Assembly (NCBI GenBank): GCA_034433995.1
Contig: DAOTZU010000169.1
Location: 2,109-66,108 of the forward strand
Length of the DNA: 64,000 bases
Source of the DNA: Anaerolineae bacterium
GTDB lineage: Bacteria; Chloroflexota; Anaerolineae; UBA1429
Direction: 5' to 3'
Positions 27,014-54,082 of the stretch are shown here, in pieces. Each line of letters opens with the position of its first letter. The stretch's first letter is position 1. Both the position numbers and the translations under genes were made by a program. The notes under the pieces were generated by a model. It saw only the letters and a program-made list of their open reading frames with translations. It did not search any database and was not told where the DNA came from.

Positions 27014-28636
27014 ATGCCTGAGCGGATTTTACTTGTGGATGATGAACAAGAGATCGTCGAGTTTGCCGGCCGGGTGCTCCAGCGGCTGGGGTACGAGACC
27101 GTCACGGCCACCTCCGGCGAGGCGGCTTTGGCGCTCCTCTCCCAGGAGCATTTTGACCTGTTGGTCACAGATCTCATGATGCCGGGGATGACGGGGCTGG
27201 AGCTTTTGGCGGCGGCGCGCCAGGCGAACCCTCACCTGGCGACGGTGGTCATCACCGGGTTCGGCAGCGTGGAGATGGCCATCAAGGCCCTGCGGGCCGG
27301 CGCGGGAGATTTTGTCACCAAGCCCTTTGGCATGGCCGATCTCCGCGCCGCCGTGGAGCACGCCCTGGAGCAGGGGCGGCTGTTGCGCGAGAACGCCCGC
27401 CTGCGCGCCCTCTTGCCCCTTTTGGAGCTGAACAAGCAGAGCTTGCGCCAGGATTTGCCGTCGCTCCTGCAGCACCTTGTGGAGATCGCCCAGGAGGAGA
27501 CGGGCGCCGATGGGGCGGCCCTGTTGCTCCTCGGTGAAGACGGCCATACGTACATCGAGGGAAGACTTGGGCTCATCCCCGCAAGTTGCACCGAATGCGA
27601 GAACATTACCCGCAATATGAGTGCCTCCGAAGAGGCGCGTATCTTGAGCCCGCAGGACGCGCCCTCGCCCACGCTGTGCGAGGCGATGCAAGAGCACGGC
27701 ATTGCCTCGCTCATGTGCGTGCCTTTGCGCACCCCCAACCGCTATCTGGGCGTCATGGCGTTGACCAAGGCCGCCGGCCACGAGCTCTTCCGCGAGGCGG
27801 ACCGGGAGTTGGCCTCCATCTTGGGAAGCCAGGCGGCGGCGCTTTTGGAGAACGCCAACCTGGTACAAAAGTTGGGGGCCTGGAACAAGGAGCTGGAGGC
27901 GCGGGTGGAGGAGCGCACCCGCGAGCTTCGCGCCGCCCAGGAGCAGCTCTTGCGCGCCGAACGCCTGGCCACCATCGGCAAGTTCGGCGCCAGCATCGCC
28001 CATGAGTTGCGCAACCCGCTGGGTGTGATCAACAACTCGGTCTATTACCTCAAAACGCGCCTGGGCGAGGCTGATCCCAAGGTTGCCAAGCATCTCCAGA
28101 TCATCGAGCGCGAGGTGGAGGCCGCAAACCGCATCATCACCGATATCATGAACTTTGTGCGTGTCACCGAGGTGCGGATGGAGCCGGTAGATCCGAACGC
28201 GTTGGTGCGCCAAACCCTGGAACGGGCTTTGTTGCCCGATACGGTGCAAGTGCAGTTGGCTCTCACCCCTGATCTGCCTCCTGTACAGGCGGATGCCGAT
28301 AAGATGCACCAGGTCTTTATCAATCTGATCAACAACGCCGTCCAAGCCATGCCCGAGGGCGGAAAGCTCACCATTGCCACGGATCAGCAGAACGGTTGCG
28401 TCCGTTTTAGTTTTAGCGATACCGGCTGCGGCATCCCCGAGGAGAACATGGAGCGCATCTTTGAGCCCTTGTTCACCACCAAGGCCAAAGGGATCGGCCT
28501 GGGGTTGCCGCTGGTGCGGATGTTGGTGGAGGCGCACCGTGGCCAGGTTCAGGTCGCCAGCCGCGTGGGCGAAGGAACCCGCTTCACCGTGTGCTTGCCC
28601 TATCAAGAGCATCATAAGGAGCACCTGACCACATGA
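27014..28636 (+). CDS. hybrid REC-GAF-histidine kinase
   Basis: N-terminal REC; H-box ASIAHELRNPL; HATPase G-boxes. Confidence 0.8.
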   Translation: MPERILLVDDEQEIVEFAGRVLQRLGYETVTATSGEAALALLSQEHFDLLVTDLMMPGMTGLELLAAARQANPHLATVVITGFGSVEMAIKALRAGAGDFVTKPFGMADLRAAVEHALEQGRLLRENARLRALLPLLELNKQSLRQDLPSLLQHLVEIAQEETGADGAALLLLGEDGHTYIEGRLGLIPASCTECENITRNMSASEEARILSPQDAPSPTLCEAMQEHGIASLMCVPLRTPNRYLGVMALTKAAGHELFREADRELASILGSQAAALLENANLVQKLGAWNKELEARVEERTRELRAAQEQLLRAERLATIGKFGASIAHELRNPLGVINNSVYYLKTRLGEADPKVAKHLQIIEREVEAANRIITDIMNFVRVTEVRMEPVDPNALVRQTLERALLPDTVQVQLALTPDLPPVQADADKMHQVFINLINNAVQAMPEGGKLTIATDQQNGCVRFSFSDTGCGIPEENMERIFEPLFTTKAKGIGLGLPLVRMLVEAHRGQVQVASRVGEGTRFTVCLPYQEHHKEHLTT

Positions 28637-31976: not shown

Positions 31977-31977
31977 G

Positions 31978-34162: not shown

Positions 34163-34174
34163 CTTTTCGCCCTC

Positions 34175-35317: not shown

Positions 35318-38300
35318 GGCGTCACCGTCTTGAGCCGCAGTTGCAGGGTGAATTGGATCAGTTGCGCGCCGGGGGCAGCGCCCAAGGGCGCCAATTGGGC
35401 CGCCGGCCGCTCCGGGGGCGCCGCCAGCCCCCACCAGCGCCGCGGGGCCGGCCAGGCTATCCCTTGCAGAAGGGGAGCGCCCTCTCTCCGCCAAGCGACC
35501 GCCTGGGGCTGCCCCAACGGGGCCCAGGCAGTCACTAGCCCCACCTCGTAGGCGCGCAGGTAATATTCCATGGTGGGGCCGAACAGTCCCTTGTTGTAGA
35601 TGGTGATGGTCACCTCGCCGTCGGCGGTCGCCTCAAAGATCACCGCCGAGTTCAGGTAACCCGTGCCGGGCAACGCATCGTCGCTTTGGCAGCCGCTGGG
35701 CTGGCAGTTGTGCACCGGCCCCGTCACCACCAACACGGTATCCACGCCGGGGGTCAGCGGATCGCAGACCAACTGGGTGGGCGAAAAGGGCGTGGTGACG
35801 GTGATGCTGGAACCGGGCTCCAGCCCGTTGCCGCAGGTGACCACCATGTAGCGCCGGCCGGCCTTGACCAAGAGGGTCACCTGGTCCACATCCAGCGCGG
35901 GGTGGAAGGTGTGGCGCTGGGATTCGTTGATGGAAAGATACCGTTTCACCGTGAGGTCCGGCTCGTAGGCGTCACCGCTTTCGGTGCCCAGATCGTCTAC
36001 CTGCAGGACATAGGTCTTGTCCGGCCCGTATTGTCCCTTGTTGGTGACCTGCACCGTCGCCTCAAGGTCGTCCGGGCCGTCGTTCTGCAGCTCCACGTAG
36101 GAGGAGAGATCGCCCGGTATCTTGTCGTCATTGCTGAGGTGGGTTGTGCCCATGTCCACCGTCAACATGGTATCCACGCCGGGGGCCAGATCTCGAGTGT
36201 AGATGCGATAGCGGCGTTCCGCCTTGGCGGTGAAGTAAACCCGATCCACGTCGCCGGGCGGATAAAAGCTCCGCGCCTGCCCCGCGCCGATGGCGATGGG
36301 CACCGGCGCAAGATCATCCACTTCGTAAGCATCGCCGGAGCCGACATCCGTCACCCGCAGGACGTAGGTGCGGTTGGGGCCAAAGAGGCCTTTGTTGGTC
36401 ACGGTGACAAAGGCGGGGGCGTCGGCGCCCGTTTGATTTTGAAACACAACCCTTGAGCTGAGATCCTGGGGCGAGCGATCGTCGCTGGTCCAGACCTGGC
36501 TGCCCAGGCGCACGGTGAGGACGCTATCGGCGCCCGTGGCCAGGGCGGTGGTCTCCACGGCGTAGGAATAGCCGGCTTTGGCGGTAAAGACCACCTGGTC
36601 CACATCGCCCGCGGGGCAGAAGGTGCGTGGCTGCTCCTCGTTCACCCCCATCACGCGGGCCACGGCATCGTCCGGTTCAAAGGCATCGCCGCAATCGAGG
36701 GTTGGAGTGGAGCTGGGGCCGGGCGTCGCCGTCGGTCCAGGGGTGAACAGCGGTGTGGGCGTAGCGGTGGTGCGGGTCAAATCGGGCGTAGGGGTGCGCA
36801 CCACACCCAAGAACTCGACCACCAGGGTGTAGGTCTTGTCCGGCCCATATTGGCCGTTGTTGGTCACCAAGACGGTGGCTTGGACGTCGCTAGCCCCGTC
36901 GTTCTGCAACTCCACATAAGATGAGAGATCGCCCGGCTGGCGGTCGTCGTTGCGGAGCTGGAGGGCGCCCATATTCACCGTGAGGACCGTATCCACGCCG
37001 GGGGCCAGGCCCTGGGTATAGATGCGGTAGCGGTGGTTGACCTTGGCCACAAAATAGACCCGATCCACATCGCCGGGCGGGTAAAAACTGCGCGCCTGGC
37101 CGATGCCAAAGGCGATGGGCACGGGGGAGAGGTCATCCACCTCGTAGGCATCGCCGGTGCCCGCGTCGGACACCTTGAACTTGTAGGTGCGATTTTGGCC
37201 AAAAAGGCCCTTGTTGGTGATGGTGATAAAGGCGGGAGCATCGCGGCCCGATTGGTTCTGGAAGATGATCTTGGAGCTGAGATCCTGGGGCGAGCGGTCG
37301 TCGCTGGTCCAGGATTGACCGCCCAAGAGCACGGTGACCACCGTATCCACACCGGGGGCCAGGTCATAGGTTTCCACGATGTAGGAATAGCCGGCCTTGG
37401 CGGTAAAGACGGCCTTGTCCACATCCCCGTTGGGACAAAAGTTGCGTCCCTGTTCCTGGTTCACCACCGCCAGGCGGCCCACGATATCATCCGGCTCGTA
37501 ACTATCGCCGCAAAAGACGGTGGGCGTGGGGCCGGGGGTAAGGGGCTGGCGGGTGAGATCGCGGGTGGGCGTGCCGGCCAGCTCGCGCAGCGTGAGCCAA
37601 TATTCCTTATCCACCCCATACTCGCCCCGGTTGGTGAGGGTGGCGATGGCCACACCGTCGCGGGAGGGGGTGAGGATCACCCGCGAGGCATAATCGCCGG
37701 GGGCGATGTCATCGTTCCGGAGGGTTTGCCCCTCCACCAGCACCTCCAACACCGTATCCACGCCCAAGGTGAGGCTGTACGTCTTGACCTCGTACACCCG
37801 CCCCGCCTTGACGGGGAAATAGACCCGGTCTACATCGCCCAAGGGGAAGAAGGTATGGCGCTGGCCCTCGTAAGGCGAGAGGGGCCGCGGGGTCTGGTCA
37901 TCCGGCTCGTAGGCATCACCCCCCGCCTCCAAGAGTTGCAGGGTGTAGGTTTTATCCACGCCATAGAGGCCCTTGTTGGTGATGGTGACCTGGGCCGTCC
38001 CATCGGCGTTGGCCTTGAAGAGGAGGCGCGAGGAGGGATCGCCGGAGGCGGCGTCATCGTTCTGCTGGGTGACGCCATCCACCTGCACCACGATGACCGT
38101 ATCCACCCCCAGGGCCAAGTTGGTGGTGCGCAATTCGTAGGCGTGCCCCGCCTTGACGGGGAAATAGACCCGGTCCACATCGCCGGCGGGGTAGAAAGAG
38201 CGGGCCTGGGCCTCGCCGATGGCGATGGGTTTGGGGGTTTGGTCGTCGCGCTCGTACGCGTCGCCGGTGGCCTCATAGACCGCCAGGGTGTACCACTTGT

Positions 38301-39294
38301 CTGGCCCGTATTGGCCGCGATTGCTGACCCGCACCCGCACCTGTTGGTCGGTGGCGCCGGGGATCTGGATCTCCACCAGGGAGGCCAAGCTGCCCGTCAC
38401 CGTCCCTGTGGGGCAGGCGCAGGCGAGCAAGGTCGCCTCGCCGGGGTGGCAATCGTCGTTAGTCAAGCCCGCACCGGCGACGGTGACCTCTAGAAAAGTA
38501 TCCACCCCGATGGCCTGGGGCAACGCCTGGATGCAATAGCGCCGGCCGGCCTTGCCCAAAAAGATCACCTGGTCCACATCGCCGGGGGGGTTAAAGTTGT
38601 GCCATTGCACCTCGCCCAGGACGATGGCGGTGGCTTGAAAATCATCGGTCTCGTAGGCATCGTAGGGGCTGGCGGTGGGCGTGGGGGTGACTTGGGCCGT
38701 GGGCGCCATGGTCAAGGTTAGAACCGCCGTACCGGTTACGGTGGCCGCGGCGGTGGGCGTGGGCAAGGTAAAGCTCTCCATGGATTGGACGATGACCTGT
38801 TCAAAGACGCCGGACCGATCCAGGGCGTTGGCGTAGCTGAGGACGTCGTCCTCGCTGAGGGCCAGGCCGCCGACGGTGAGGGTGTTGCGATCTTGGAAGA
38901 GGTCGGTCAGGCTGAGCCGCTGACGGTCATAGTTGAGCAACGCCTCGACGATGGCCGTCCAATCGCGCTGTTTGGCGGCGAGGGAGGGCTGCAGGGTCTG
39001 GATGACGGTGATGGCCCGCAGCGTGCGGCTGAGCTCGTCGGTCATCTGGATCATCTCTGGGGCGGGCGTGCGCATGGTTTTGAGGGCGCGCTGGGCCTGT
39101 TGGGCCTTGAGCTCCAGTTGCTCTGCCTGGGAGGTGTTGACGCTCAGCAGGACCAGCCCGAGCACCGTCAGCACGACCAGGCCGATGGATACGCCCCAGA
39201 GCAATTTGGCCATGGGCGGCACCACCCGCGGCCGGTATTGGGGCGGCAAGATATTCAGGTCAATTGGGCCAGGCGCTGGTGGTTTTGGCGGCAT
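35314..39294 (-). CDS. giant PilN-like protein: N-terminal PilN membrane/coiled-coil module fused to about eight pre-peptidase C-terminal (PPC)-like beta-sandwich repeats
   Basis: N-terminus LNILPPQYRP + TM + coiled-coil (PilN hallmark); then eight repeats of DAYEPDD...GDVDRVYF..KAG..Y......GVDTVL.V.....NDD...........T.TN.G.YG....Y.L.V. Confidence 0.65.
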   Translation of the reverse strand: MPPKPPAPGPIDLNILPPQYRPRVVPPMAKLLWGVSIGLVVLTVLGLVLLSVNTSQAEQLELKAQQAQRALKTMRTPAPEMIQMTDELSRTLRAITVIQTLQPSLAAKQRDWTAIVEALLNYDRQRLSLTDLFQDRNTLTVGGLALSEDDVLSYANALDRSGVFEQVIVQSMESFTLPTPTAAATVTGTAVLTLTMAPTAQVTPTPTASPYDAYETDDFQATAIVLGEVQWHNFNPPGDVDQVIFLGKAGRRYCIQALPQAIGVDTFLEVTVAGAGLTNDDCHPGEATLLACACPTGTVTGSLASLVEIQIPGATDQQVRVRVSNRGQYGPDKWYTLAVYEATGDAYERDDQTPKPIAIGEAQARSFYPAGDVDRVYFPVKAGHAYELRTTNLALGVDTVIVVQVDGVTQQNDDAASGDPSSRLLFKANADGTAQVTITNKGLYGVDKTYTLQLLEAGGDAYEPDDQTPRPLSPYEGQRHTFFPLGDVDRVYFPVKAGRVYEVKTYSLTLGVDTVLEVLVEGQTLRNDDIAPGDYASRVILTPSRDGVAIATLTNRGEYGVDKEYWLTLRELAGTPTRDLTRQPLTPGPTPTVFCGDSYEPDDIVGRLAVVNQEQGRNFCPNGDVDKAVFTAKAGYSYIVETYDLAPGVDTVVTVLLGGQSWTSDDRSPQDLSSKIIFQNQSGRDAPAFITITNKGLFGQNRTYKFKVSDAGTGDAYEVDDLSPVPIAFGIGQARSFYPPGDVDRVYFVAKVNHRYRIYTQGLAPGVDTVLTVNMGALQLRNDDRQPGDLSSYVELQNDGASDVQATVLVTNNGQYGPDKTYTLVVEFLGVVRTPTPDLTRTTATPTPLFTPGPTATPGPSSTPTLDCGDAFEPDDAVARVMGVNEEQPRTFCPAGDVDQVVFTAKAGYSYAVETTALATGADSVLTVRLGSQVWTSDDRSPQDLSSRVVFQNQTGADAPAFVTVTNKGLFGPNRTYVLRVTDVGSGDAYEVDDLAPVPIAIGAGQARSFYPPGDVDRVYFTAKAERRYRIYTRDLAPGVDTMLTVDMGTTHLSNDDKIPGDLSSYVELQNDGPDDLEATVQVTNKGQYGPDKTYVLQVDDLGTESGDAYEPDLTVKRYLSINESQRHTFHPALDVDQVTLLVKAGRRYMVVTCGNGLEPGSSITVTTPFSPTQLVCDPLTPGVDTVLVVTGPVHNCQPSGCQSDDALPGTGYLNSAVIFEATADGEVTITIYNKGLFGPTMEYYLRAYEVGLVTAWAPLGQPQAVAWRREGAPLLQGIAWPAPRRWWGLAAPPERPAAQLAPLGAAPGAQLIQFTLQLRLKTVTP
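36004..37506. repeat. intragenic tandem duplication (two ~0.7-0.8 kb units, period 819 bp) encoding a two-PPC-domain module
   Basis: Nearly identical 32-nt strings at 36462 and 37281; protein units DSYEPDD...TYTLVV and DAFEPDD...TYVLQV are co-linear. Confidence 0.6.
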
Positions 39295-39385
39295 AGGTTC
39301 CTTTGCGCAGCAAGGGCCAGAGCCGAGACTCTGGCCCCATTGTAACATATCTTGCTGTAGCTGTCATCCGTGGCAATGGGGGCGT

Positions 39386-40543
39386 TTAGCGGGTGATGAA
39401 CCAGGAGAGGAGCTGCATGGCCCCGTCCTCGCAAAGGCGCACCCGCGCCCGGGTGATGGTGCCGCCGGCGGTGGCTTCGATGTCGAAATCCTTGCAGCCC
39501 TCGTCCTCGCCGGCCATGGGGGGCGGCTGTATGGTGAGCCCCTCGCCGCAGAGATCCACCGAATCGCCCACAAAGGCGCCGGCCATGGCGCCGGAACCGC
39601 TCACGCGGATCATCCCGTTGGGGGCATAAACGTAACCCCGCACCATGGAGACGCCGCTCCCGCTGATCTGGATCACCGGCTGGGAGCAACGCGCCGAGCC
39701 GGTGTAGGCCGCCGGCGTGAAAAAGGCCAGATTATCCACATAGGGATGCAGGTCATAGCCGGAGCCGATGATTTCGATGGTGCCCAAGGCCACAAAGGTG
39801 GCCGTGCCGCTGAAGCTGTTGCCGTTGATCTTTAGATTGCCGGTGATATAGTACAGCCCGTCAAAGACGGTGCCGCTTTCGTTGACCGTATAGTTGCCCT
39901 CGATCCGGTGGTAGCGGCCCTCTTGTTGGGCAGCGTAGGCTGCCGTGCCCACAGCGTTGGGGTTGTTGTAATCATCGAGGGTGAACAACGGGGGCAAGAT
40001 CGTCACCGGCACCTGAATGGGGCTGGCCGGCGGGGGCGGGTTAAAGGTCACTTGGCCCTCGCCGCTGACCTCGGTGACGTACTCGACGATGCCGTTGATG
40101 ATGGTATCGGCCCCGCGGATGCGCATATCCCGGTTGGTGTGGACGTTGCCGTACAGCCGGTTATGGGCGCCCGTCCAATCCAACACGGAGGAACAGGTGG
40201 TGCTGTTGCCCCACAGAGTATAGTTGAAGGACCAAGAAACGGGCGCCACGCGCAGGGTGACCGGTAACCGGTTGACCGTGTCGGGCAGGGTCAGCTGCAC
40301 GCCTGAGGCGCCGCTCTGCTTCACCGTCTCGCGCCAGGCGGCATCGTGGCGCAGTCGCCAGAGGGCGTATTCCGCCCCCGCCTCGGAGGCGTACTGGGCG
40401 TGGAGCGCTCCCTCGTGGCGCAGGGTGGCCTTTTGCGCCGTGGCCACATGGCCCAAAAGGGGCACCAGGAGCAACGTCCCCACCATCAGGGCCACCAGCG
40501 CGTGGGGCAACGTGTTTCCCTGTTCCCTCGCGAGAGACGTCAT
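39386..40543 (-). CDS. pilus-associated protein, PilX/TadG-like N-terminus with GSG-repeat beta-rich C-domain (paralog 2)
   Basis: N-terminal TM, conserved YASEAGAEYALWRLRHDAAWRE block, repeated I(S/T)GSG motifs; ATGA overlap with upstream paralog. Confidence 0.5.
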   Translation of the reverse strand: MTSLAREQGNTLPHALVALMVGTLLLVPLLGHVATAQKATLRHEGALHAQYASEAGAEYALWRLRHDAAWRETVKQSGASGVQLTLPDTVNRLPVTLRVAPVSWSFNYTLWGNSTTCSSVLDWTGAHNRLYGNVHTNRDMRIRGADTIINGIVEYVTEVSGEGQVTFNPPPPASPIQVPVTILPPLFTLDDYNNPNAVGTAAYAAQQEGRYHRIEGNYTVNESGTVFDGLYYITGNLKINGNSFSGTATFVALGTIEIIGSGYDLHPYVDNLAFFTPAAYTGSARCSQPVIQISGSGVSMVRGYVYAPNGMIRVSGSGAMAGAFVGDSVDLCGEGLTIQPPPMAGEDEGCKDFDIEATAGGTITRARVRLCEDGAMQLLSWFITR

Positions 40544-41742
40544 GATGAGCCCACCTGCCAGGAGAGCACCTGCCAATCGCCGTCGCCGCACCCTCGCATC
40601 CGCACTGTCGTGACCGTCGAGCCGGAGGTGGACCGGATGTCATAGACGCCACAGACGATGCTGCTGCCGCCGCTGCCCGGCAGTTCCACCTCGGCCAGGT
40701 TGATGGTGGCCCCCGAACCGTTGATATCGATCTCGTTGCCCAAGAAGGCGCCGGTGATCACCCCGCCGGAGCCGGTGAGAGAGATCTTGCCATTGGGGGC
40801 AAAGACCGTCCCGCCGGTGTTGCCCGAACCGCTGATGCTGACCACGTTGGTGCTGGCCGCGCGGGTGCTGAAAAAGCTCAGGCCGGGCACGTAGGGCGTG
40901 AAATCCAGCCCCGAGCCGCTGACATCGATGGTGGACAAGGAGACCACGGTCACATTGTATCCCCGCAGGCCCGAGCCGGAAAAGTTGACTTTGCCGGTGC
41001 AATAGTGCAGACCCTCCGGGATCACCGTGCCGGAGCCGGTGATGTTCCATGTGCCATTATGGACGTAATATTTCCCCTCGGCCTGGGCTCGGGCTGCCCA
41101 GCTGCCGGGTTGGTTGGGATCGTTGAACTCGTTGATATCCCAGGTGATGGGAAAAGGCTGGACGGTGGTCTGCACGGCCGGGCCCGGCACGATGCGGTTG
41201 CCCGAACCCAAAATGGTCAGGTTGCGCACATATTCCGCTGTGCCGTAGATGGTGTGGCCCGAACCGTTGATCTTGAGATCGCGGTTGCTGTGCACGCCGC
41301 CGTTGACGGTGTGCCCCGATCCGCCGATGACCAAGCCGTTGGTGGCGGTGCTGCTCTGGGCCCAGAGGGCCCATTCCAGGCATTCTGGCTCGCCGCCCCC
41401 GCCGCCAGCCTGGGTCTCGGTCTCGACGCACACCACCTCCACGGTGGGGGTATCTCCGTTGGGGGCGCTGGGCAGGGTCAAGGAGGCCACGGTGCCCGGC
41501 TGGTCCAGCAGAGTTTGCCGCCAAGCCGCGTCGTGGACCAGCTTCCAGAGGGCGAATTCCACGCCGGCATCGCTGGAATATTGCCGCTGCAGGGTGGTCT
41601 GGGTTGCCGCCGTCGTCTTCAGGCTGGTGCTCAGATGGGCCAGGAGCGGCCCGATCAAAATGATCCCCGTGGCTAAGGCGAGCAAGGCCAGGGGCAAGGA
41701 CTCGCCGCGTTCCTCTTGCCGGAATGTTGCTCTGTGCTTCAT
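40540..41742 (-). CDS. pilus-associated protein, PilX/TadG-like (paralog 1)
   Basis: Collinear similarity to 39386..40543 product (YSSDAGVEFALWKLVHDAAWRQ; GSG repeats); GAGGGAG RBS. Confidence 0.5.
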   Translation of the reverse strand: MKHRATFRQEERGESLPLALLALATGIILIGPLLAHLSTSLKTTAATQTTLQRQYSSDAGVEFALWKLVHDAAWRQTLLDQPGTVASLTLPSAPNGDTPTVEVVCVETETQAGGGGGEPECLEWALWAQSSTATNGLVIGGSGHTVNGGVHSNRDLKINGSGHTIYGTAEYVRNLTILGSGNRIVPGPAVQTTVQPFPITWDINEFNDPNQPGSWAARAQAEGKYYVHNGTWNITGSGTVIPEGLHYCTGKVNFSGSGLRGYNVTVVSLSTIDVSGSGLDFTPYVPGLSFFSTRAASTNVVSISGSGNTGGTVFAPNGKISLTGSGGVITGAFLGNEIDINGSGATINLAEVELPGSGGSSIVCGVYDIRSTSGSTVTTVRMRGCGDGDWQVLSWQVGSS

Positions 41743-41755
41743 GGGAAGATCTCCC

Positions 41756-42274
41756 TCACTGGGAAAGGCGCCGGGTGATGGTCAGCGTCATGCTGCGGCT
41801 GCCCCGGCGGGCCAGGGCGCTGGTCAAGGTGATGCGCACGGTGGTGCTGATCTGGGTCCCTTGCAGCGGCTCGATCTGCCAGGAGCTGATGTGCCGGGCC
41901 ACGGTGACCGAGCTGCTCCCGCCCGCGCCCGAGGTGGTGCGCACCAAATTGCCCCCCACCAGGCTGTAGGTGACGGTGGTGACCTGCGCCGATCCCGTTT
42001 GTCCAAAGGGGTAGGAGGGGATGTTCAGAGTCAATGTGGTGCCGTCAAAAGTGCCCTCCGAGGCGCCCACCACATCCCGGTTGAGGAGCACGCCGGCGGT
42101 CTGGAGCTGTTGGCTCAGCGTCAGCGAGTCCTGCTGCAGGCGGGTGAGGTTGTTAAATTGATACAGCATCACCACCAACGCCCCCAGGAGCAGCGCCGTG
42201 ATGGCGGTGGAGATCATGGTCTCCACCAGGGTGAATCCGTTTTGGCCCGTGCCGAGGAGCAAGCGCTTTTTCAT
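41756..42274 (-). CDS. prepilin-type N-terminal cleavage/methylation domain protein (minor pilin-like)
   Basis: GFTLVETMISTAITALLLGALVVML class-III signal peptide. Confidence 0.7.
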   Translation of the reverse strand: MKKRLLLGTGQNGFTLVETMISTAITALLLGALVVMLYQFNNLTRLQQDSLTLSQQLQTAGVLLNRDVVGASEGTFDGTTLTLNIPSYPFGQTGSAQVTTVTYSLVGGNLVRTTSGAGGSSSVTVARHISSWQIEPLQGTQISTTVRITLTSALARRGSRSMTLTITRRLSQ

Positions 42275-42675
42275 GGCCGATCCACCTTGTAATCCTCTAA
42301 GGCAAAGAGCAACTTGCCGTTTTCATAGACCTTGACCAGGATCTTTTGCATCCCGTTATCCGTGGCCGGCGGCGAACCGGAGAAGGTCTGGGTGGCCGAG
42401 AGCCAGTAGGTCACCTCCACCGAATGGGTGTAGAGGCTGGAGGGTTGGATGGTGGGGTACGGCTGGGCCGTCGGGTTGGCCCGATACTCGGCCTGTTTGA
42501 TCAGCTCCATCTGCTGCCGGGCATAGTTTTCGGCGCTGATGCGCTCTTCCACCAAAGCCACGCTCCCGCTGGAGGTGGAAAGCCCGCTGAGCATGATGAG
42601 GAGCGCCGCGCCGACGATGGCCAGCGTCACCAAGTCGCCCACCAGAGAACCGCCCCGTTGATCTTGTAACATCAT
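42271..42675 (-). CDS. pilin/pseudopilin-like protein with hydrophobic N-terminal helix
   Basis: ORF 42271..42795; start MMLQDQRGGSLVGDLVTLAIVGAALLIM at 42675 with AAGGTGG RBS. Confidence 0.6.
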   Translation of the reverse strand: MMLQDQRGGSLVGDLVTLAIVGAALLIMLSGLSTSSGSVALVEERISAENYARQQMELIKQAEYRANPTAQPYPTIQPSSLYTHSVEVTYWLSATQTFSGSPPATDNGMQKILVKVYENGKLLFALEDYKVDRP

Positions 42676-42802
42676 GGGAACCACCTTCTTGCTTATAAAA
42701 CCACCCGCAAAAACGCCGGTTTTTGTCGTCCAGCGCCCGCGAGGGGCTGGGCACCCGGCGGACCGCAAGACCTGTGCCCGCCGGATGCGCCCCAAAAGCG
42801 GG

Positions 42803-44005
42803 TTACTTGATCGAACCCATGAGCGAGTACATGGGCATGATCACCGCCACAGCCACAAAGCCCACCACCGCGCCGATAAAGAGGGTGAGGGCCGGCTCCA
42901 CCGCCCCGGCCATGGCCGCCACGGCCCGGTCCACCTCCTCTTCGTAAAAGATGGCCAGGGTCTCCATGTTGGAATCCAGGGCGCCGGTCTCTTCGCCCAC
43001 CCGCACCATCTGCACCAGCATCCCCGGAAAGATCTTTTGCTGGGCTAAAGGATCGGCCAGGCCGCGGCCCTGCAAAAGGTCGCGGCGCACGCCCTCCAAG
43101 GCGGCCCTGATGACCCGGTTGCTCTGGGTGCGGATGATCATCTCGATGATCTCCGGCAGGGCCAACCCCGCCCGCAGCAGGGCGGACATGGAGCGACACA
43201 TCCGCGCCACCGCCCCTTGGATCGTCACCCGTTTGATGAGGGGGATCTTGAGCAAGGCCCGGTCAAAGAACCAATGCCCTGCCTCCGAGCGGAAGAAAAG
43301 CACCCCCGCGCTGCCCACCAGCACCAGCGTGCCCAGGAGATGGAACTTGTAGGTGGAGGCGAAATCGGTGATGGCGATGAGGATGCGGGTGGGCAGGGGT
43401 AACTCCGCGCCGAAGGAGGTGAACAGGCCCATCAGGGGCGGCAGGGCCACGGTGAGCATCAAAAAGACCACGCCCACCGCCAACAAAAGCACAAAGGAGG
43501 GATAGGCCATGGCGCTGCGGATCTTGCGCACCAGGGCCTCTTCTTTCTCCATGTAAATGGCCAGTTGCCGCAGCACCATCTCCAAATTACCGGTGCGCTC
43601 GCCCACCTCGATCAACCGAGCATAGAGGTTGGAAAAGATCTTTTTGTGTTTCGAGATGGCCTCGGAGAGGAAACGGCCCTGCTGCAGGTCGAGGATGATC
43701 TCGCCCAACACCTGGCGCAGACGCTTGTTGCTGGTCTGTTCCTGCAACAGTTGGATGGCGCGAACGATGGGGATGCCCGATTCGATCAGTGTGGCCAATT
43801 GCCGGGAAAAGATGATCAGATCCCGGGTGCGCACCTTGGGGCTGAACAAGGAGACCCCGCCGTTTGTCTCCTGGGTCTCCTTGAGAGAGATGATGGTATA
43901 GTTCAGCTTCCACAGGAGCTCCTCGGCCACTTTCTCCGAGGCCGCCTCGATGCGGCCTTGGATCATTTCTCCTTTAGGCGTATACGCGATGTAATGGTAT
44001 GCCAT
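42803..44005 (-). CDS. pilC: type IV pilus inner-membrane platform protein PilC (GspF family)
   Basis: Two GspF-type repeats; start MAYHYIAYTPKGE at 44005. Confidence 0.85.
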   Translation of the reverse strand: MAYHYIAYTPKGEMIQGRIEAASEKVAEELLWKLNYTIISLKETQETNGGVSLFSPKVRTRDLIIFSRQLATLIESGIPIVRAIQLLQEQTSNKRLRQVLGEIILDLQQGRFLSEAISKHKKIFSNLYARLIEVGERTGNLEMVLRQLAIYMEKEEALVRKIRSAMAYPSFVLLLAVGVVFLMLTVALPPLMGLFTSFGAELPLPTRILIAITDFASTYKFHLLGTLVLVGSAGVLFFRSEAGHWFFDRALLKIPLIKRVTIQGAVARMCRSMSALLRAGLALPEIIEMIIRTQSNRVIRAALEGVRRDLLQGRGLADPLAQQKIFPGMLVQMVRVGEETGALDSNMETLAIFYEEEVDRAVAAMAGAVEPALTLFIGAVVGFVAVAVIMPMYSLMGSIK

Positions 44006-44019
44006 GGTCACCCACTCCC

Positions 44020-45930
44020 TCAACTCATGGTAAAGACGCCCCTCAAAATCTCTGAGGGCGTGGTGATGCCCATTTTGACCTTGACCATGCCGTCGTAGGG
44101 CATGCTCTTCATCCCCATGGCCTCGGCGGCGCGGCGCAGGTCGCCCGAGTTGGCCCCCTGCAACACCAGGCGGCGCAGCTCGTCGTTCATCATCAAGAGC
44201 TCAAAGACGCCCACCCGCCCGCGATAGCCCGTCTCGGCGCAATAGTTGCAGCCTGTGCCGTATTCAAAGTGGGTGCGGTGTTCGCCCAGTTGCTGCTCAT
44301 AGGCCGTGATCTCGGGCAGGGTCGCCTCTTTGACGGCGCGACACTGGTTGCACACCCGCCGCACCAGCCGCTGGGAGAGCACGGCCAAGAGCGACGAGGT
44401 GAGGAGGAACGGCTCCACCCCAAGGTCAATCAGGCGAAAGATGGCGCCCACGGTGTCGTTGGCGTGGATGGAGGAAAAGACCAGGTGGCCCGTCAGCGAG
44501 GCCTGCACCGCCGTCTTGGCCGTCTCTTGGTCGCGGATCTCGCCCACCAGGATGACGTCGGGGTCCAAGCGCATCGCCGCCCGCAGCCCGCTGGCGAAGG
44601 TGATCTCCGCCTGGCGGTTCACCTGCACCTGGTTGATCCCCTCAAAACGGTATTCCACCGGGTCCTCGATGGTGATGATCTTGAGCACCGTCTTATCCAG
44701 CTGGTTCAAGCTGGCATAGAGGGTGCTGGTCTTGCCGGAGCCGGTGGGACCGGCGATGAGCACGATGCCCCAGGGCGAATGAATCAGGCGGTTCCAGTTC
44801 TGCTCCATCTCGGGCAAAAAGCCCAGCTCGCTCAAGCCCCGCACCGAGATGGATTTATCCAGCACGCGCATGACCACCATCTCCCCCTTGACGGTGCTGA
44901 TGGTGGCCACGCGGATATCCACGGATTTTCCCTCCACCGTGATGGAGAATTGCCCATCTTGCGGGCGGCGCCGCTCGGCGATGTTGAGGTTGGCCAAAAC
45001 TTTGATCCGCGAGACGATGGGCGCGTGCACCCGCAACGGCAGCCGCATGGCATCGTGCAAGACGCCATCGATGCGGTAGCGGATCCGGAGATGGTCCTCC
45101 TGGGGCTCGATATGGATATCGGAGGCCTTGTCCTTCACCGCCTGGGTGATCATGAGCTCCACGGCCCGCACCACCGGCGCCTGCGAGACCAGTTCGGCGG
45201 TGAGGCGTTGGCTGGTTTTATCCTCCGTCTCGCTGGGGGGCGGCGCGATGCGCTCGATGTGGCGATCGATCTCGGTCGTCGCCTGATAATAGTTGGTAAA
45301 GGCGTTTTGGATATCGGCCGGCGAGGCGCGCAGTGTCTTGATCTTTAATCCCGTGCGGATGCGCAGGTCCTCAATGGCCAGCAGGTTGGTGGGGTCCGTC
45401 ATGGCCACCAACAATTGCCCTTGCTCCACCTTGAGCGGCAACAGGCTGTACTTGCGGGCCAGCTCCTCCGGCACCAGTTTCACCGCTTCGGGATCCACCT
45501 GGTAACGCTTCAGGTCAATGATGGGCAGGGAGACCAGGTCGCGGTGTTTGCGTTCGATCAGCTCGATGACGGCGTTGACGTCAAAGGGCTTGTACAAAAC
45601 GCCATCCACGCCGGCCCAGAGGGCCTCGGAGACGTACCCCTCCAATTGGCTGTGGCCGGTCATGATGATGGTGATCACATTGGGATTGATGGCCTTGATC
45701 TGGCGCAGCGTCTCCACGCCGTTCATCCCCGGCATCATGATGTCGATGAGGATGAGGTCGTAGGAGGCCTTTTTCATCAGCTCCAGGGCGGTCTTGCCGT
45801 CCTGGGCGCTGCCCACGCTAAAGCCCCGATCCTCCAGGATATCCACCAGGGTCTCGCACATCCCGGGGTCGTCATCCACGATGAGCACGCTCAATTGTTT
45901 TTGTTGGACGGCAACCGTTTCCTCGGTCAT
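44020..45930 (-). CDS. pilB: type IV pilus assembly ATPase PilB (GspE family) with N-terminal response-regulator receiver domain
   Basis: REC block LSVLIVDDDPGMCET...LILIDIMMPGMNG; GspE N-domain; Walker A GPTGSGKT; tetracysteine CNQC...CNYC; start could also be 45969. Confidence 0.85.
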   Translation of the reverse strand: MTEETVAVQQKQLSVLIVDDDPGMCETLVDILEDRGFSVGSAQDGKTALELMKKASYDLILIDIMMPGMNGVETLRQIKAINPNVITIIMTGHSQLEGYVSEALWAGVDGVLYKPFDVNAVIELIERKHRDLVSLPIIDLKRYQVDPEAVKLVPEELARKYSLLPLKVEQGQLLVAMTDPTNLLAIEDLRIRTGLKIKTLRASPADIQNAFTNYYQATTEIDRHIERIAPPPSETEDKTSQRLTAELVSQAPVVRAVELMITQAVKDKASDIHIEPQEDHLRIRYRIDGVLHDAMRLPLRVHAPIVSRIKVLANLNIAERRRPQDGQFSITVEGKSVDIRVATISTVKGEMVVMRVLDKSISVRGLSELGFLPEMEQNWNRLIHSPWGIVLIAGPTGSGKTSTLYASLNQLDKTVLKIITIEDPVEYRFEGINQVQVNRQAEITFASGLRAAMRLDPDVILVGEIRDQETAKTAVQASLTGHLVFSSIHANDTVGAIFRLIDLGVEPFLLTSSLLAVLSQRLVRRVCNQCRAVKEATLPEITAYEQQLGEHRTHFEYGTGCNYCAETGYRGRVGVFELLMMNDELRRLVLQGANSGDLRRAAEAMGMKSMPYDGMVKVKMGITTPSEILRGVFTMS

Positions 45931-46429
45931 GGTCTCATCTCGATGGACATTAAAGGCTATACCGGCCATGGGCCTTGCCGGCTAACGAAATCTAACAGTT
46001 TCTGCTCTTATCATACCGGATCGTGGGCGGCGGGGCATAAAAAGTACATTAATCCAGCGCTTTTGGCGCGGGGAGGGGGCTAAATTTGGCCTAAAGGAGA
46101 ACACACCCGCTTCGCCCTCGGCGCTCGGAGGTATCCCCAGAAAGATGCCGGGGCTGCGCCTGGCGGGTGGCGCGCCACCGCCGTGGCGCGCTCGCGGATT
46201 TACGCTTCATTTACCCCACTTTGACCCACGCTTTACGGATGCCTATAGGGGCTGTGCTATGATGTGGCCAGAATAAGCTCAGGATAGACGACGATAGCAT
46301 CGCAGCAGCAGTGAGGCCAGCAGGCAAGGAGGTAAGGAGGCAAGATCAGAAGACGAGGTCAGAGTTGCGGCACATGGCAATGCGTGTGGCATCGGGCATT
46401 ATTCTTAGCACTAAACGGAGGTAACGAAA

Positions 46430-46768
46430 ATGCGTAAGCAGCAAGGTTTCACCCTGATCGAACTGTTGATCGTCTTGGCCATCCTCGGCATCCTCATCGG
46501 CATCGTGGCCATGAGCGTGGGCGGCCTGAACCAGACGGCCAAGAGCCGGGGCATGAACTCGGAGAAAGAGATCGTCCAGACGGCCATCGACACCTACAAC
46601 ACCCAAGACGTGACGGTGGAGGGCTCGGCCACCATCCCCGCGCGGGCAACGGCGGCCACCATCGGCACGGCGGATACGGATGCTCCCTTCGCCAAGTATC
46701 TGAAGCGCGCCACCAAGTACAAGTACACCTGGGCCGCGGGTGGGGACACCTTGGTGGTCTCTGAATAA
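46430..46768 (+). CDS. pilA: type IV major pilin PilA
   Basis: MRKQQGFTLIELLIVLAILGILIGIV prepilin leader plus N-methyl-Phe motif; RBS GGAGG. Confidence 0.8.
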   Translation: MRKQQGFTLIELLIVLAILGILIGIVAMSVGGLNQTAKSRGMNSEKEIVQTAIDTYNTQDVTVEGSATIPARATAATIGTADTDAPFAKYLKRATKYKYTWAAGGDTLVVSE

Positions 46769-46830: not shown

Positions 46831-48891
46831 TTATGGCGTGACGCGGCGCGGAACGACCGTGATCGTCCCCAGTGCGATCCCCTCCTCTGGCCGCGCCACA
46901 CCCATCGGCAAGACGGGACGCGTGCGCTCCTCATCCTCATAGACCCAAAGCTTGATGGTGTACGTGCCCGGCTTGACGCGCCAGGGCACGAGCATATCGT
47001 AGCGCTCGCGGATGATCGTCCCAGCCTCCCAGCGGGAAGAGGGGCGGGCTCCGCCAAGGAAATGGCTCTGGTCCCACACCGGCAGGCCGCGCAAGAGCTG
47101 GATATAGCCCTCGGCATCTTCAAAGCGGACGCTGGCATAGTAATCCACCGTGGTGGGCTGCTCCAGGCGCCAATAGTAGCTGAGGCTGGCCGCCTCGCCC
47201 ACTGCTACCGGCTGGGTTGGCCCGCCAAAACCCACCAACGTGAGGGAAGGACCAAAACGCACGCCGCGCAGCTGATGTTCCTGGGGGATGGCAGCGACAA
47301 CACCGCTGGGTGGGGCGGGGACCATGCGATAGACATCCATCATCGGCAGCCAGACATCTTTGAAGCGCGGCAGGGGCACGGTGGCGGAGACCATCGTTTC
47401 CACTATGTTGAGGCCCACCGGCGATAGGGTCAGATGGTGCCATACCTCCTCTGGGAGCCGCAGGCCTGGGATCACATAGAGCGGAGCCTCGGCCGCGCGC
47501 AGTTCGGCGGCGAACTCGTCCCAATCCAGGTCAGGCACGCTCAGGCCGGCTGAGAGCTCCACATCCGGCCGCCAGCCGCCGATGGTTTGATAGTAGGCCA
47601 GCGGGGCCCAGGCCCAGAAATCCGCCAACACGTGGGCGTTGGGCTCTAGGCGCAGGGCGAGGTAGCGGGCGTAATCGTAGGCAGAATAGTCCTGGCTGCG
47701 GTCGAGAACGCTAAAATCCCGCGCCACCAGATAGGTCGGCAGGCCGAGCAGGAGGAGGCCAAGCAGCAAGGGCACAGAGGCAACCGAGATCGGGCCGGCC
47801 CCTCGGACCGGCCGCGCGGCCCATCTTTCCACCCATCCGATGAGCGCAGCGCATCCCACCCCTAGCCAGATGGCCATGAGGACATAGATGGGCAAGAAAT
47901 ATTGAAAGATGTTGTGGATGCCGTAGATGAGGATCATCCCCATGGTCAAGACGCTGCCCACAAGGGCATAGAGCAAAAAGGGGCGGTTTTCCTGCCAAAG
48001 GCGCACCGCGCCCCACAAGGCCAGGGCCAGGCCAACGGCGGTGAACTCGTAGAGGGGAAAGAGGACCGCCGTCTTGAGCCGGATGCGCGCCACGACCACG
48101 TTGGCCGTAGGGGCCTGCAAGACCGAGCTGCTCTGCATGCCGACGGTAATCATCTTGAGAAAGGTGCGCCAATCGGAGGCGTCGGCCCACATCATGGTGG
48201 GCTTTTGCAGGGAGCGCAGGGGCAGGTAGAGGTTGATGGCGAACCCCGCCAGGAAAAGCCCAGCCAGCGGCAAAAGCTCACGCCAGGGCAGGCGGCGCTG
48301 GCGGTCCCAATGCACCGCGCCCCAATAGACCAGCATGGCCGGGGCAAAGAATTGGATCAGGTGGTGATTGCCCATCCCCAAGCCCAACACATAAAACGCC
48401 CAACGCAGCGTGCCGGGGCGTCCCCTCCGTTGCCAGGTGAGCAACAGATAACTGATCAAGGCCACGAGAAAGGCGTTGAGGGCATAACTTTCGGCCAGGG
48501 TGGCGTTGGCCCAGAGGGTGGAGCTGACGCCCAGGGTGAGGGCAGCCAGGCTGGCGGCCAGGCGGCGGCCGGTCACATCCCAGACGATGAAAAACACCAC
48601 CACCACCGTGCCCGTGGCAAAGACGGCGGACATCAGGTTCACCCGATAGGCGATATCCCCCACCGGCAAAAAGGTGAAGAGCTTGCCCAGAAGCGCGTAG
48701 AGGGGGTAGCCCGTGTGATGGATGATCCCCAGGTGGTAGGCCGCCGCGGCCATCTCGGCCATGTCGTACCACATGGCGGTGGGAGCCAGGGTACGGAGAT
48801 ACAGCGCCCCACAGAGGAGGCCCACCAACGCCGCCCAGAGGCGATGATCCAGCAGGGGCAGGGCGATCTGTATCCTTGGTTTCGCTTTCAT
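46831..48891 (-). CDS. polytopic membrane protein, DUF2723 / GT-C (PMT-like) glycosyltransferase family
   Basis: About 11 TM segments N-terminal, C-terminal soluble domain; GGGAGGA RBS. Confidence 0.6.
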   Translation of the reverse strand: MKAKPRIQIALPLLDHRLWAALVGLLCGALYLRTLAPTAMWYDMAEMAAAAYHLGIIHHTGYPLYALLGKLFTFLPVGDIAYRVNLMSAVFATGTVVVVFFIVWDVTGRRLAASLAALTLGVSSTLWANATLAESYALNAFLVALISYLLLTWQRRGRPGTLRWAFYVLGLGMGNHHLIQFFAPAMLVYWGAVHWDRQRRLPWRELLPLAGLFLAGFAINLYLPLRSLQKPTMMWADASDWRTFLKMITVGMQSSSVLQAPTANVVVARIRLKTAVLFPLYEFTAVGLALALWGAVRLWQENRPFLLYALVGSVLTMGMILIYGIHNIFQYFLPIYVLMAIWLGVGCAALIGWVERWAARPVRGAGPISVASVPLLLGLLLLGLPTYLVARDFSVLDRSQDYSAYDYARYLALRLEPNAHVLADFWAWAPLAYYQTIGGWRPDVELSAGLSVPDLDWDEFAAELRAAEAPLYVIPGLRLPEEVWHHLTLSPVGLNIVETMVSATVPLPRFKDVWLPMMDVYRMVPAPPSGVVAAIPQEHQLRGVRFGPSLTLVGFGGPTQPVAVGEAASLSYYWRLEQPTTVDYYASVRFEDAEGYIQLLRGLPVWDQSHFLGGARPSSRWEAGTIIRERYDMLVPWRVKPGTYTIKLWVYEDEERTRPVLPMGVARPEEGIALGTITVVPRRVTP

Positions 48892-50031: not shown

Positions 50032-51657
50032 TCAATCTTCCACATCCATGGCGAGGGAGAGAGGATTTTGGCGGCCGCCCGCGGGTTTGGCTCTAGGCGC
50101 GCGCTGAAAGGTAATGTTCACCCCTTGGGCCGGGGGATAATCCACCCTTTTCCCTGCCAGGAGCTCGGCGATGGTGAGGATCTGGAGGCGGGGATGCTGG
50201 CCCCAGGGGGAGGTGTAAAAGCCGGCGCTGGCCGCCTCGGCCCGCATGGCCGGGGAGGGCTCCTGCAGCGTGATCAGCACGCCGATCTCGGCCTGCTCTC
50301 GGTTGACCACGCCCCACAGGTCGCGCAGATGGGCCACGGTGGTATGGCCGGCCTTGACAGAAAAGACGATCTGCTTGGTTTTGCCGTTGGGATCATCGTG
50401 GAAATAGAGCCGCCCATCTACGCCTTTATCGGCACCCCGTTTCCCGGCCGCGGGACGGGCGCCCACCAGCCCCAGGGCCCACCATTGGAACTGGAAGGGA
50501 TCTTGCGCAGCCAATTCCTCGGCATCGGCCAGGGTGACGGGCTCGCCGATCACCTCATAGTGGACGCTATCGCCAAAGGTGTCGCTCAGGCGCCGTTTGA
50601 TCAAGTTAATGGCCAGGTGGGTAATATCAATGCCGATCCAGCGGCGGTTGAGCTTTTGCGCGGCGGCAATGGTGGTGCCACAGCCGCAGAAAGGATCCAA
50701 GACGATATCGCCCTCGTTGCTGGAGGCGCGGATGATGCGCTCCAAAAGGGCCACAGGTTTTTGGGTGGGGTAGCCGAGGCGTTCTACAGCTTGCGCGCCG
50801 ACAGGGGGAATATCCGTGATGACTGACCTGATCAGCGTCCCCTTTTGCTCATGCAAATAGCGTTTGAGATAGGGCCTGCCCGTTTTGCTCCAGAACAATC
50901 TCCCGTCTTGATCCAGCATTTCCAGTTTTTCGCGCACGACGCGCCACCCCCAACGGGGCGTATAGCCTTTGTATTCGTAGGTCAGATTGGGCCTAGCTCC
51001 CATCGTGGCTGAGCGGATGATGTGATCCAGACGATACCTCCCTCGCTCGTCAGTATAGCGGTAAAAACTTTTAACGTAATCTACGCTGTGCGGAATATAG
51101 ACCCGGTTCCAAGTTGCCTGTTCAGTTTTGACATAATAGAGTATGACATCATGCACGGCTCCCCATTTCTTGGAATCATTGTGGCTGCTTGTGCGTTGCC
51201 AGATAAGCTCATTGCGAAATTGACGCGGTCCAAACACCGCGTCCATCAGCAGGCGCAGATAGGGGCTGGCCGTGGGGTCGCAATGGAGATAGATGCTGCC
51301 GGTGGGCTTGAGCACGCGGTGCAGCTCCACCAGGCGGGGCGCCATCATGGCCAAATAAGCCATCATGTTGCTGCCGCCCAGCAAGCGATAGAAGGCTTGC
51401 AAAGTCTGGGAGACCTGGCCGCCTCGTTCCACCATCTCTTGGTAGGCGCGGGCCGCGGCCTGGTCCCACGTCCAAGTATCCTCAAAAGCTTTGATCTGGG
51501 CGGCAGCCTGAGAGCCGTTATGCTCGGCAAAGAGGACGTTGTAGGTGGCGTTACTGTTAAAGGGGGGATCGAGGTAGATCAGATCTACCGACTCATCTTT
51601 GATATAGCGCTGGAGGATCTCCAAATTATCGCCGTAGTAAAGCAGATTCTCGGCCAT
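50032..51657 (-). CDS. beta-class N6-adenine/N4-cytosine DNA methyltransferase with C-terminal Mrr-cat-like (PD-(D/E)xK) domain
   Basis: Motif IV DPPF (LIYLDPPFNSN) precedes motif I (VLDPFCGCGTT); C-terminus GADKGVDGRLYF...IVFSVK; visibly lower GC than neighbours. Confidence 0.8.
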   Translation of the reverse strand: MAENLLYYGDNLEILQRYIKDESVDLIYLDPPFNSNATYNVLFAEHNGSQAAAQIKAFEDTWTWDQAAARAYQEMVERGGQVSQTLQAFYRLLGGSNMMAYLAMMAPRLVELHRVLKPTGSIYLHCDPTASPYLRLLMDAVFGPRQFRNELIWQRTSSHNDSKKWGAVHDVILYYVKTEQATWNRVYIPHSVDYVKSFYRYTDERGRYRLDHIIRSATMGARPNLTYEYKGYTPRWGWRVVREKLEMLDQDGRLFWSKTGRPYLKRYLHEQKGTLIRSVITDIPPVGAQAVERLGYPTQKPVALLERIIRASSNEGDIVLDPFCGCGTTIAAAQKLNRRWIGIDITHLAINLIKRRLSDTFGDSVHYEVIGEPVTLADAEELAAQDPFQFQWWALGLVGARPAAGKRGADKGVDGRLYFHDDPNGKTKQIVFSVKAGHTTVAHLRDLWGVVNREQAEIGVLITLQEPSPAMRAEAASAGFYTSPWGQHPRLQILTIAELLAGKRVDYPPAQGVNITFQRAPRAKPAGGRQNPLSLAMDVED

Positions 51658-51790
51658 GGAAGACCACCTCAGATTATCTCACGGGTATTATACACCATAA
51701 ACGTGAGCGATGTCATTTGGGGCCACGAGGTCGCCCTTTCCCGCATGGAGCCGCGGCGCGATAAGCGCGCACGTTCTCCGCGTGTGGCGG

Positions 51791-54061: not shown

Positions 54062-54082
54062 GGTTCCCTCCCAATAAGCGTT

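Follow-up and report, generated by a model that had tools for sequence, protein, structure and literature searches.

A receiver domain predicted to stand in for the c-di-GMP sensor of a PilB-like pilus extension ATPase in Anaerolineae

The window studied here is a 64,000-nucleotide stretch of DNA from an Anaerolineae bacterium (GenBank assembly GCA_034433995.1, contig DAOTZU010000169.1, positions 2,109 to 66,108 of the forward strand) that carries a type IV pilus gene cluster. At the head of this cluster we found an open reading frame (ORF) that encodes a response-regulator receiver domain (REC) joined to the N1E and T2SSE domains of a PilB-like ATPase, hereafter REC-PilB. It is quite probable, in our judgment, that REC-PilB is the extension ATPase of a monoderm-style type IV pilus whose MshEN_N domain, the sensor of cyclic di-GMP (c-di-GMP), has been replaced by a phosphorylatable receiver, phosphorylated from a conserved kinase cassette. 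This reading is carried by the architecture of the protein, its intact catalytic and acceptor residues, its pilus context, the junction at which the modules are swapped, and synteny with the kinase cassette.

The Pfam scores of the three domains are far above chance. REC matched Response_reg (PF00072) with 107.4 bits (E = 5.9e-31, cutoff 30.2) over model positions 1 to 110 of 111, the N1E segment matched MshEN/T2SSE_N (E = 1e-21), and the C-terminal part matched T2SSE (PF00437) with 418 bits (E = 4e-125). Nothing is missing from the ATPase, whose motifs are all intact. Walker A (GPTGSGKT, residues 407 to 414), the Asp box (431 to 439), Walker B (469 to 480), the His box (493 to 502), the catalytic Glu and the tetracysteine zinc site (C540/C543/C574/C577) are invariant or nearly so across 120 homologues. 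An AlphaFold2 model built on these homologues (mean predicted local distance difference test [pLDDT] score, 77.9) has a (beta-alpha)5 receiver at residues 27 to 145, with five strands and five helices in alternation, joined by a few residues only to a compact N1E domain (150 to 227). A disordered linker (231 to 262) separates N1E from the N2 and C-terminal ATPase domains. In ten-residue blocks, pLDDT was mostly 79 to 89 at residues 31 to 100 and went down to 52 to 74 at residues 101 to 150.

We aligned the receiver with E. coli CheY, B. subtilis Spo0F, and NtrC and scored conservation in the 120 homologues. The acid pocket residues D32 and D33 (CheY D12 and D13) are conserved in 118 and 117 sequences, respectively, the phospho-acceptor D76 (CheY D57) in 119, and K127 (CheY K109) in 118; position 104 (CheY T87) is Thr or Ser in 119, and the cis-Pro after the Lys, P128 (CheY P110), is present in all 120. 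The alpha4-beta5 segment, VSEALWxGVDGVLYKP, is also highly conserved in the family. Because no fewer than 117 of the 120 homologues keep each element of the set (acid pocket, acceptor Asp, Thr, and Lys-Pro pair), the domain is a canonical receiver that should accept phosphate, not a degenerate pseudo-receiver.

Two in-frame ATG codons are available for the gene, and the whole receiver is kept from either. The homologues have 14 to 22 residues ahead of the beta-1 strand (ILIVD), many of them beginning with MTEQ, and ATG 45930 gives the N terminus MTEETVAV; this fit makes ATG 45930 (636 residues) the likely start, in preference to ATG 45969. Homologue comparison was our sole guide, since a promoter and terminator scan of the intergenic region 45850-46480 returned zero sites and no strong Shine-Dalgarno sequence precedes either codon. 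Thus, a preliminary description of this DNA, which had delimited the gene as 44020-45930 and described a canonical N-terminal REC with conserved acceptor Asp, Thr, and Lys, fused to a GspE/PilB ATPase with Walker A and tetracysteine motifs, was right on each of these points.

We then consider what the receiver replaces. MshEN_N is the four-helix c-di-GMP-binding part of MshEN, and MshEN_C is the N1 domain (Wang et al. 2016, PMC5013675). In a search of PDB sequences, PilB chains aligned with REC-PilB only from residue 147, which corresponds to residue 75-81 of Geobacter PilB, and no solved chain covered both REC and ATPase. Homology with a Dehalococcoidia PilB (49% identity; L039:17109-18797, L numbers denoting loci of relatives) begins exactly at SLPIIDLK, its residue 65, and the first 64 residues of that protein bear the MshEN_N-like motifs NLGESLVQMQVISAEQLHSALELQ...KLSEILVSQGIIGTEDL. 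The c-di-GMP motif RLGxx(L/V/I)(L/V/I)xxG(L/V/I)(L/V/I)xxxxLxxxLxxQ, strict or relaxed, was found in 0 of 120 family members, the window protein having no such motif ahead of N1E. Since homology starts at the N1E junction and the motif is missing from the family, REC stands exactly where related motors have their c-di-GMP sensor, a clean swap of input modules at a fixed junction.

In the same Dehalococcoidia locus, a gene for a REC-ParA/MinD-like ATPase (L039:15946-17112) precedes and overlaps the gene of the conventional MshEN-type PilB. A receiver is therefore tied to PilB there too, as a separate protein.

The window also encodes a signaling cassette (Table 1), in which the genes for a REC-GAF histidine kinase, a single-domain receiver, and a short histidine kinase-like protein follow one another with overlapping stop and start codons. 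The kinase is the candidate phosphodonor for REC-PilB, and the single-domain receiver would serve as an intermediate of a relay or else as a phosphate sink. Pairwise identity among the five receivers of the window is 25 to 44%, and no donor or partner stands out. The short protein keeps its H box (GHDLRN), including the His and the E/DxxN phosphatase motif. In contrast, its N box has lost the Asn (NILLFQYAA versus NLINNAVQA in the kinase), its G2 box is lost (ALQMGL versus GIGLGL), and it lacks the F box that the kinase possesses; the G1 box, present in the kinase, is retained in only three of six orthologues of the short protein. Because these ATP-binding determinants are lost, autophosphorylation of the short protein is unlikely. 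It may plausibly act as a phosphotransferase between the single REC and terminal receivers, in functional analogy to Spo0B or ChpT, as a dedicated phosphatase, or as a RetS-like modulator that forms heterodimers with the kinase. In the PDB it is matched best by ordinary kinases, ZraS and KinB among them, and we rejected on these grounds the idea that it is a homologue of Spo0B or ChpT.

The cassette proteins of the window were compared by tblastn with 25 related loci, together with the gene tables of the latter. In most loci with upstream sequence, the cassette lies directly upstream of REC-PilB in the same orientation. The full order REC-GAF-HD-GYP, REC-GAF kinase, single REC, short kinase-like protein, REC-PilB, PilC occurs on one strand at L005/L006/L017, L007, L009, L010, and L012. 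A divergent clade (53 to 59% identity; L011, L018, L020, L021, L024, and L025) has, directly upstream of REC-PilB, a variant cassette composed of a PAS kinase, a helix-turn-helix (HTH) protein, a REC-REC protein, and a short kinase-like protein. Orthologues are 45 to 55% identical to the window kinase and 38 to 50% identical to the short protein. This adjacency, conserved over a family of 50 to 74% identity, is the best evidence at hand for cooperation between the kinase and REC-PilB. The preliminary description had connected REC-PilB with the two-component/c-di-GMP operon at about 25.2-29.7 kb, a link that the relatives bear out. Its reference to many hybrid kinases nearby was overstated: of hybrid kinases of the classical kind there is one (60898-63141), and besides it the window contains one REC-GAF kinase and one short pseudo-kinase.

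Several observations weigh against control of REC-PilB by this cassette. In the window itself, the cassette is not adjacent to REC-PilB but 14 kb away, convergent with pilT and ending 142 bp from the pilT 3′ end. Starting from the common layout, this arrangement would arise if the pil block (29859-45969) were inverted once; we sought inverted repeats flanking the block and found nothing convincing. The accessory genes are not universal either: L014 has the cassette without the short kinase-like gene, L015 has the kinase and an 81-residue remnant of the single REC without the short gene, and at L008 and L016, KaiC/KaiB-like genes replace the kinase. This excludes a strict four-step relay as a general mechanism. 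Since some relatives lack the short protein, the smallest conserved unit is the pair of kinase and REC-PilB, for which direct transfer would be simplest. Finally, as its sole deviation from a canonical receiver, the equivalent of CheY Y106 is V124 in the window protein and Val, Ile, or Met in the family, and the classical aromatic switch is thus absent.

At the two loci with KaiC/KaiB-like genes, a KaiC/RecA-like ATPase (487 residues) and a KaiB-like protein are encoded directly upstream of REC-PilB (L016:7641-9399 and L008:3466-4018), in place of the module of kinase, single REC, and short kinase-like protein; the KaiC gene of L008 looks degraded. The archaeal KaiC-like protein ArlH regulates the PilB-related archaellum motor ArlI (bioRxiv 10.1101/2021.03.19.436134), a pairing that this arrangement recalls.

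In the model that we propose, the phosphotransfer itself, its donor, and the sign of its effect, activation or inhibition, are inferences. The REC-GAF histidine kinase would be the likely donor, with transfer either direct or through the single REC and the short pseudo-kinase in a His-Asp-His-Asp relay. Once D76 is phosphorylated, the alpha4-beta5-alpha5 face of REC, which only a few residues connect to N1E, would switch, and this switch would alter the hold of the N-terminal module on the hexameric motor or the docking of the motor on PilM/PilC, turning extension on or off. In the T2SS (type II secretion system), N1E contacts the PilM-like partner GspL. For this reason, the motor would likely respond by docking on PilM/PilC, by giving up an autoinhibitory contact, or by assembling into hexamers. 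It is likely that the REC-GAF kinase drives the REC-GAF-HD-GYP phosphodiesterase as well, and pilus activity would in this way be coupled to the breakdown of c-di-GMP. Activation would fit as the sign of the effect, because the co-encoded HD-GYP protein would lower c-di-GMP, the usual “motile” state, and because in Synechocystis only phosphorylated PixG binds PilB1 (PMC11181946). On the strength of the conserved upstream cassette, we infer that pilus extension is under phospho-control and regard this as well supported. The preliminary description had put forward such control in the form of direct gating by phosphorylation.

A more specific proposal is that the REC-GAF kinase, the single REC, and the pseudo-kinase as phosphotransferase form a dedicated phosphorelay onto both the extension motor and the HD-GYP phosphodiesterase, phosphorylation having replaced c-di-GMP as the input. 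We hold it only tentatively. The parts of such a relay, namely an active-type kinase, a single REC, a His-bearing protein with a dimerization and histidine phosphotransfer (DHp) domain and degenerate boxes, and a terminal receiver, are co-encoded in the window and in several relatives. Phosphorelays of the Spo0F-Spo0B and ChpT types proceed by His-Asp-His-Asp steps. The order found in the window, in which the DHp protein has a nonfunctional catalytic and ATP-binding (CA) domain, mirrors such a relay. In contrast to Spo0B and ChpT, the short protein of the window is a recent paralogue of the neighboring kinase and is missing from some relatives. If this proposal is true, the motor could be switched in vitro with beryllofluoride (BeF3-), and the similar betaproteobacterial cassette described below would point to a portable signaling unit for GspE/PilB-type ATPases.

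Alternatively, the phosphorylated receiver could serve mainly as a phosphate sink or feedback element, the real output of the kinase being c-di-GMP hydrolysis by the HD-GYP protein, with the ATPase left unswitched. One kinase does face several competing receivers, namely the REC at its own N terminus, the single REC, and that of the HD-GYP regulator, and sink receivers such as PixH and PilH are known in pilus chemosensory systems. However, the cassette already encodes a free single-domain REC usable as a sink, the alpha4-beta5 segment of the fused REC is highly conserved, and the linker to N1E is very short, the fusion being kept across a family of 50 to 74% identity. All of these points speak for an intramolecular output, and we therefore consider a sink function unlikely. 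About equally improbable is a receiver that works without phosphorylation, as a structural, dimerization, or localization module like the pseudo-receivers of FrzS and FimX, which would leave the motor outside kinase control. Such domains exist in pilus regulation, the REC of FimX affecting localization although it has no acceptor Asp (PMC11656802), and the aliphatic residue at the CheY Y106 position of REC-PilB could be read in the same sense. A pseudo-receiver would nevertheless not be expected to keep its catalytic and switch residues, all five of them and the cis-Pro among them, in 117 or more of 120 homologues, and the kinase cassette is retained directly upstream in most relatives.

The identity of the motor follows from its gene context. 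REC-PilB heads the pilus cluster and is the only extension-type ATPase there. Its scores of 543 bits with TIGR02538 (the PilB equivalog) and 575 bits with TIGR02533 (GspE) both fall below the cutoffs, 675.65 and 630.25, respectively; it is for this reason filed as PilB-like by context and belongs to neither equivalog. Its best solved relatives in the PDB sequence search are the PilB proteins of Geobacter and Myxococcus. The cluster is that of a secretin-less type IV pilus with PilC, pilins, PilM, PilD, and PilT (Table 1), and we found no secretin or GspC/L/M in it; REC-PilB is thus an extension motor and not a T2SS GspE. That it is nonetheless a GspE or the ATPase of a non-pilus machine, as could be argued from the higher score with GspE, from public annotations as “general secretion pathway protein E,” and from betaproteobacterial REC-T2SSE relatives in signaling operons without an adjacent pilC, is very improbable given that both equivalog scores are under cutoff, that the nearest solved structures are PilB proteins, and that the operon combines PilC, prepilins, PilM, PilD, and a PilT above its cutoff with no secretin or GspC/L/M.

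Within the cluster, the 112-residue prepilin encoded divergently from REC-PilB is the candidate major pilin, and the four genes that follow pilC probably encode minor pilins or a tip complex. Of the two LysM proteins, one has four LysM repeats and the other a weak PilO-like/TPR region plus LysM. Their presence in a cluster devoid of secretin suggests peptidoglycan anchoring in a monoderm-style envelope. A 686-residue TMEM260/PMT_2-like GT-C glycosyltransferase gene (46831-48891, minus strand) directly adjoins the candidate major pilin gene, and its product could O-glycosylate the pilin.

Table 1 Features of the window related to REC-PilB, the pilus cluster, and the kinase cassette
Feature	Coordinates	Strand	Remarks
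REC-N1E-T2SSE ORF (REC-PilB)	44020..45969	minus	649 residues from ATG 45969, 636 from ATG 45930
Receiver (REC), residues 28-138	45556..45888	minus	Pfam Response_reg, alignment, 120 homologues
REC key sites	D32/D33 45871-45876; D76 45742-45744; T104 45658-45660; K127 45589-45591	minus	
N1E/MshEN_C subdomain, residues 147-232	45274..45531	minus	After REC helix alpha-5 and a short linker
N2 and C-terminal ATPase domain (T2SSE), residues 261-643	44041..45189	minus	
Walker A; tetracysteine site	44728-44751; 44239-44352	minus	Within the T2SSE part of REC-PilB
PilC platform protein (T2SSF)	42803..44005	minus	ATG 44005 is the gene callers' start in identical contigs
174-residue protein, pseudopilin with N_methyl motif (41756-42274), two DUF7305 proteins of about 400 residues	39386..42795	minus	
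1344-residue protein with PilN-like and PPC domains	35314-39348	minus	
Two LysM proteins	34175-35494, 32915-34162	minus	
PilM	31978-32901	minus	
PilD prepilin peptidase	31146-31976	minus	
PilT retraction ATPase	29859-31052	minus	TIGR01420 480 bits, cutoff 319
112-residue prepilin	46430..46768	plus	MRKQQG/FTLIELLIV, canonical G/FTLIE site; divergent from REC-PilB
HTH_17 protein	25155-25460	plus	
REC-GAF-HD-GYP response regulator	25493-27007	plus	HD and HHExxDGxGYP motifs intact
REC-GAF-HisKA-HATPase histidine kinase	27014..28636	plus	H, N, G1, F, and G2 boxes intact
Single-domain receiver, 132 residues	28633..29031	plus	Missed by simple ORF ranking
Short histidine kinase-like protein, 228 residues	29031..29717	plus	DHp and degenerate CA; paralogue of the DHp-CA of the adjacent kinase

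REC-PilB can be compared with several known systems. V. cholerae MshE and M. xanthus PilB, which carry MshEN, have the same motor of N1E, N2, and C-terminal domains, with the same Walker, Asp, His, and tetracysteine motifs, and their small regulatory module likewise sits at the N-terminal end, directly before N1E (PMC5013675, PMC11656802). REC-PilB differs in having no MshEN_N (RLGxx..LxxxLxxQ), and its predicted input is a phosphoryl group instead of c-di-GMP. In vitro, ATPase rates often show no clear response to c-di-GMP binding, and for this reason it is an unsettled question how N-terminal domains signal to the PilB/MshE hexamer (PMC11656802). With a standard receiver as its input, a natural PilB could be locked on or off by BeF3- or by D-to-E/A substitutions, which would offer structural and biochemical studies a clean handle on motor activation.

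In Synechocystis, the PatA-type regulators PixG and PixE act on PilB1 (PMC11181946), a phosphorylated receiver controlling the extension motor as proposed here. That pathway also has a histidine kinase and a second, single-domain REC, the sink PixH, like the cassette of the window. The Synechocystis regulator is, however, a protein of its own, with a PATAN domain for binding to PilB1/PilC, and its kinase is CheA-like, whereas in REC-PilB receiver and motor are covalently joined, the kinase being a REC-GAF protein of the HisKA type. In Pseudomonas and Xanthomonas, two-component and c-di-GMP signals meet on the activity or localization of PilB through Pil-Chp (PilG/PilH) and FimX-PilZ-PilB (PMC11656802). 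A response regulator with c-di-GMP phosphodiesterase activity occurs in both settings, as PdeR in those bacteria and as the predicted REC-GAF-HD-GYP protein in the window. Those systems act via adaptors, and in none of them has a response regulator been shown to touch PilB directly; REC-PilB would need no adaptor.

In REC-AAA+ regulators of the NtrC type, an N-terminal receiver gates the assembly or activity of a hexameric P-loop ATPase. This is a mechanistic analogy only, since the NtrC ATPase belongs to another superfamily, its output is transcription, and homology to REC-PilB is limited to REC.

The fusion is widespread in Anaerolineae. The 120 best homologues (57 to 74% identity) all share the three-domain architecture, and their named sources are Anaerolineae or Chloroflexota metagenome-assembled genomes (MAGs). 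A protein identical to REC-PilB of the window is present in several metagenome assemblies. Among GTDB species representatives, a full REC plus N1E match was found in at least 14 Anaerolineae/Chloroflexota MAGs and at least one Burkholderiales genome. A phmmer search with residues 14-262 against 1.84 billion representatives was dominated by multi-REC proteins and gave no usable taxonomic spread; REC and N1E were matched as one stretch only in P0121, P0049, P0123, P0126, P0129, and P0143. At two loci of a more divergent Anaerolineae clade (L011:7443-11860 and L022:242-4115), two tandem REC-PilB paralogues, 53 to 59% identical to the window protein, precede a single pilC.

The Burkholderiales protein (733 residues, 38% identity to REC-PilB) has a helical segment between REC and N1E. 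It is a member of a second family, large and annotated only generically, in Betaproteobacteria of the Nitrosomonadales type. This uncharacterized REC-MshEN-T2SSE family is common in Betaproteobacteria (Sulfuriferula species, Gallionella, Thiobacillus, and the cultured Sulfuricella denitrificans skB26) and, as here, puts REC on a GspE/PilB-type ATPase. Its members differ from REC-PilB in their size of about 745 residues, in their identity of only 38%, in the helical segment, and in having no adjacent pilC. The ATPase gene comes last in an operon that encodes a GAF kinase, a REC-HD-GYP protein, a single REC, a Ras-like GTPase, and a second kinase (L072:9944-12145; L091:2740-10244). This cassette closely resembles that of the window, though it comes from another phylum.

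The architecture is thus present in public databases in hundreds of sequences of at least two families. We found no paper that describes or tests a receiver-fused PilB or GspE. A 2024 review of PilB regulation covers c-di-GMP, PilZ/FimX, Pil-Chp, and inhibitory peptides, the fusion not being among them (PMC11656802), and Wang et al. (2016) reported REC with MshEN_N only in non-ATPase proteins, e.g., Bd2402 (PMC5013675). Taken singly, both motor and receiver are standard; the features that have not been studied are the pairing of the two, the receiver in place of the c-di-GMP sensor, and the conserved cassette. If our reading is correct, this would be the first instance in which two-component phosphorylation reaches the pilus motor itself and not via transcription, localization factors, or adaptors. 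For Anaerolineae, abundant filamentous bacteria of sludge and sediments, it would define a sensory pathway for pili and hence for attachment, motility, or DNA uptake.

Elsewhere in the window, the long ORFs 19354-22836 (minus), 51710-54280 (plus), and 9046-10716 (plus) have an atypical GC content by codon position, with high GC1 and lower GC3. A Pfam scan gave no match for ORFs 19354-22836 and 9046-10716. All three are probably antisense or shadow ORFs, not genes. A few kilobases from the pilus cluster, a 541-residue protein fusing an N6/N4 DNA methyltransferase and an Mrr-like restriction endonuclease domain is encoded at 50032-51657 (minus) and is probably unrelated to REC-PilB.

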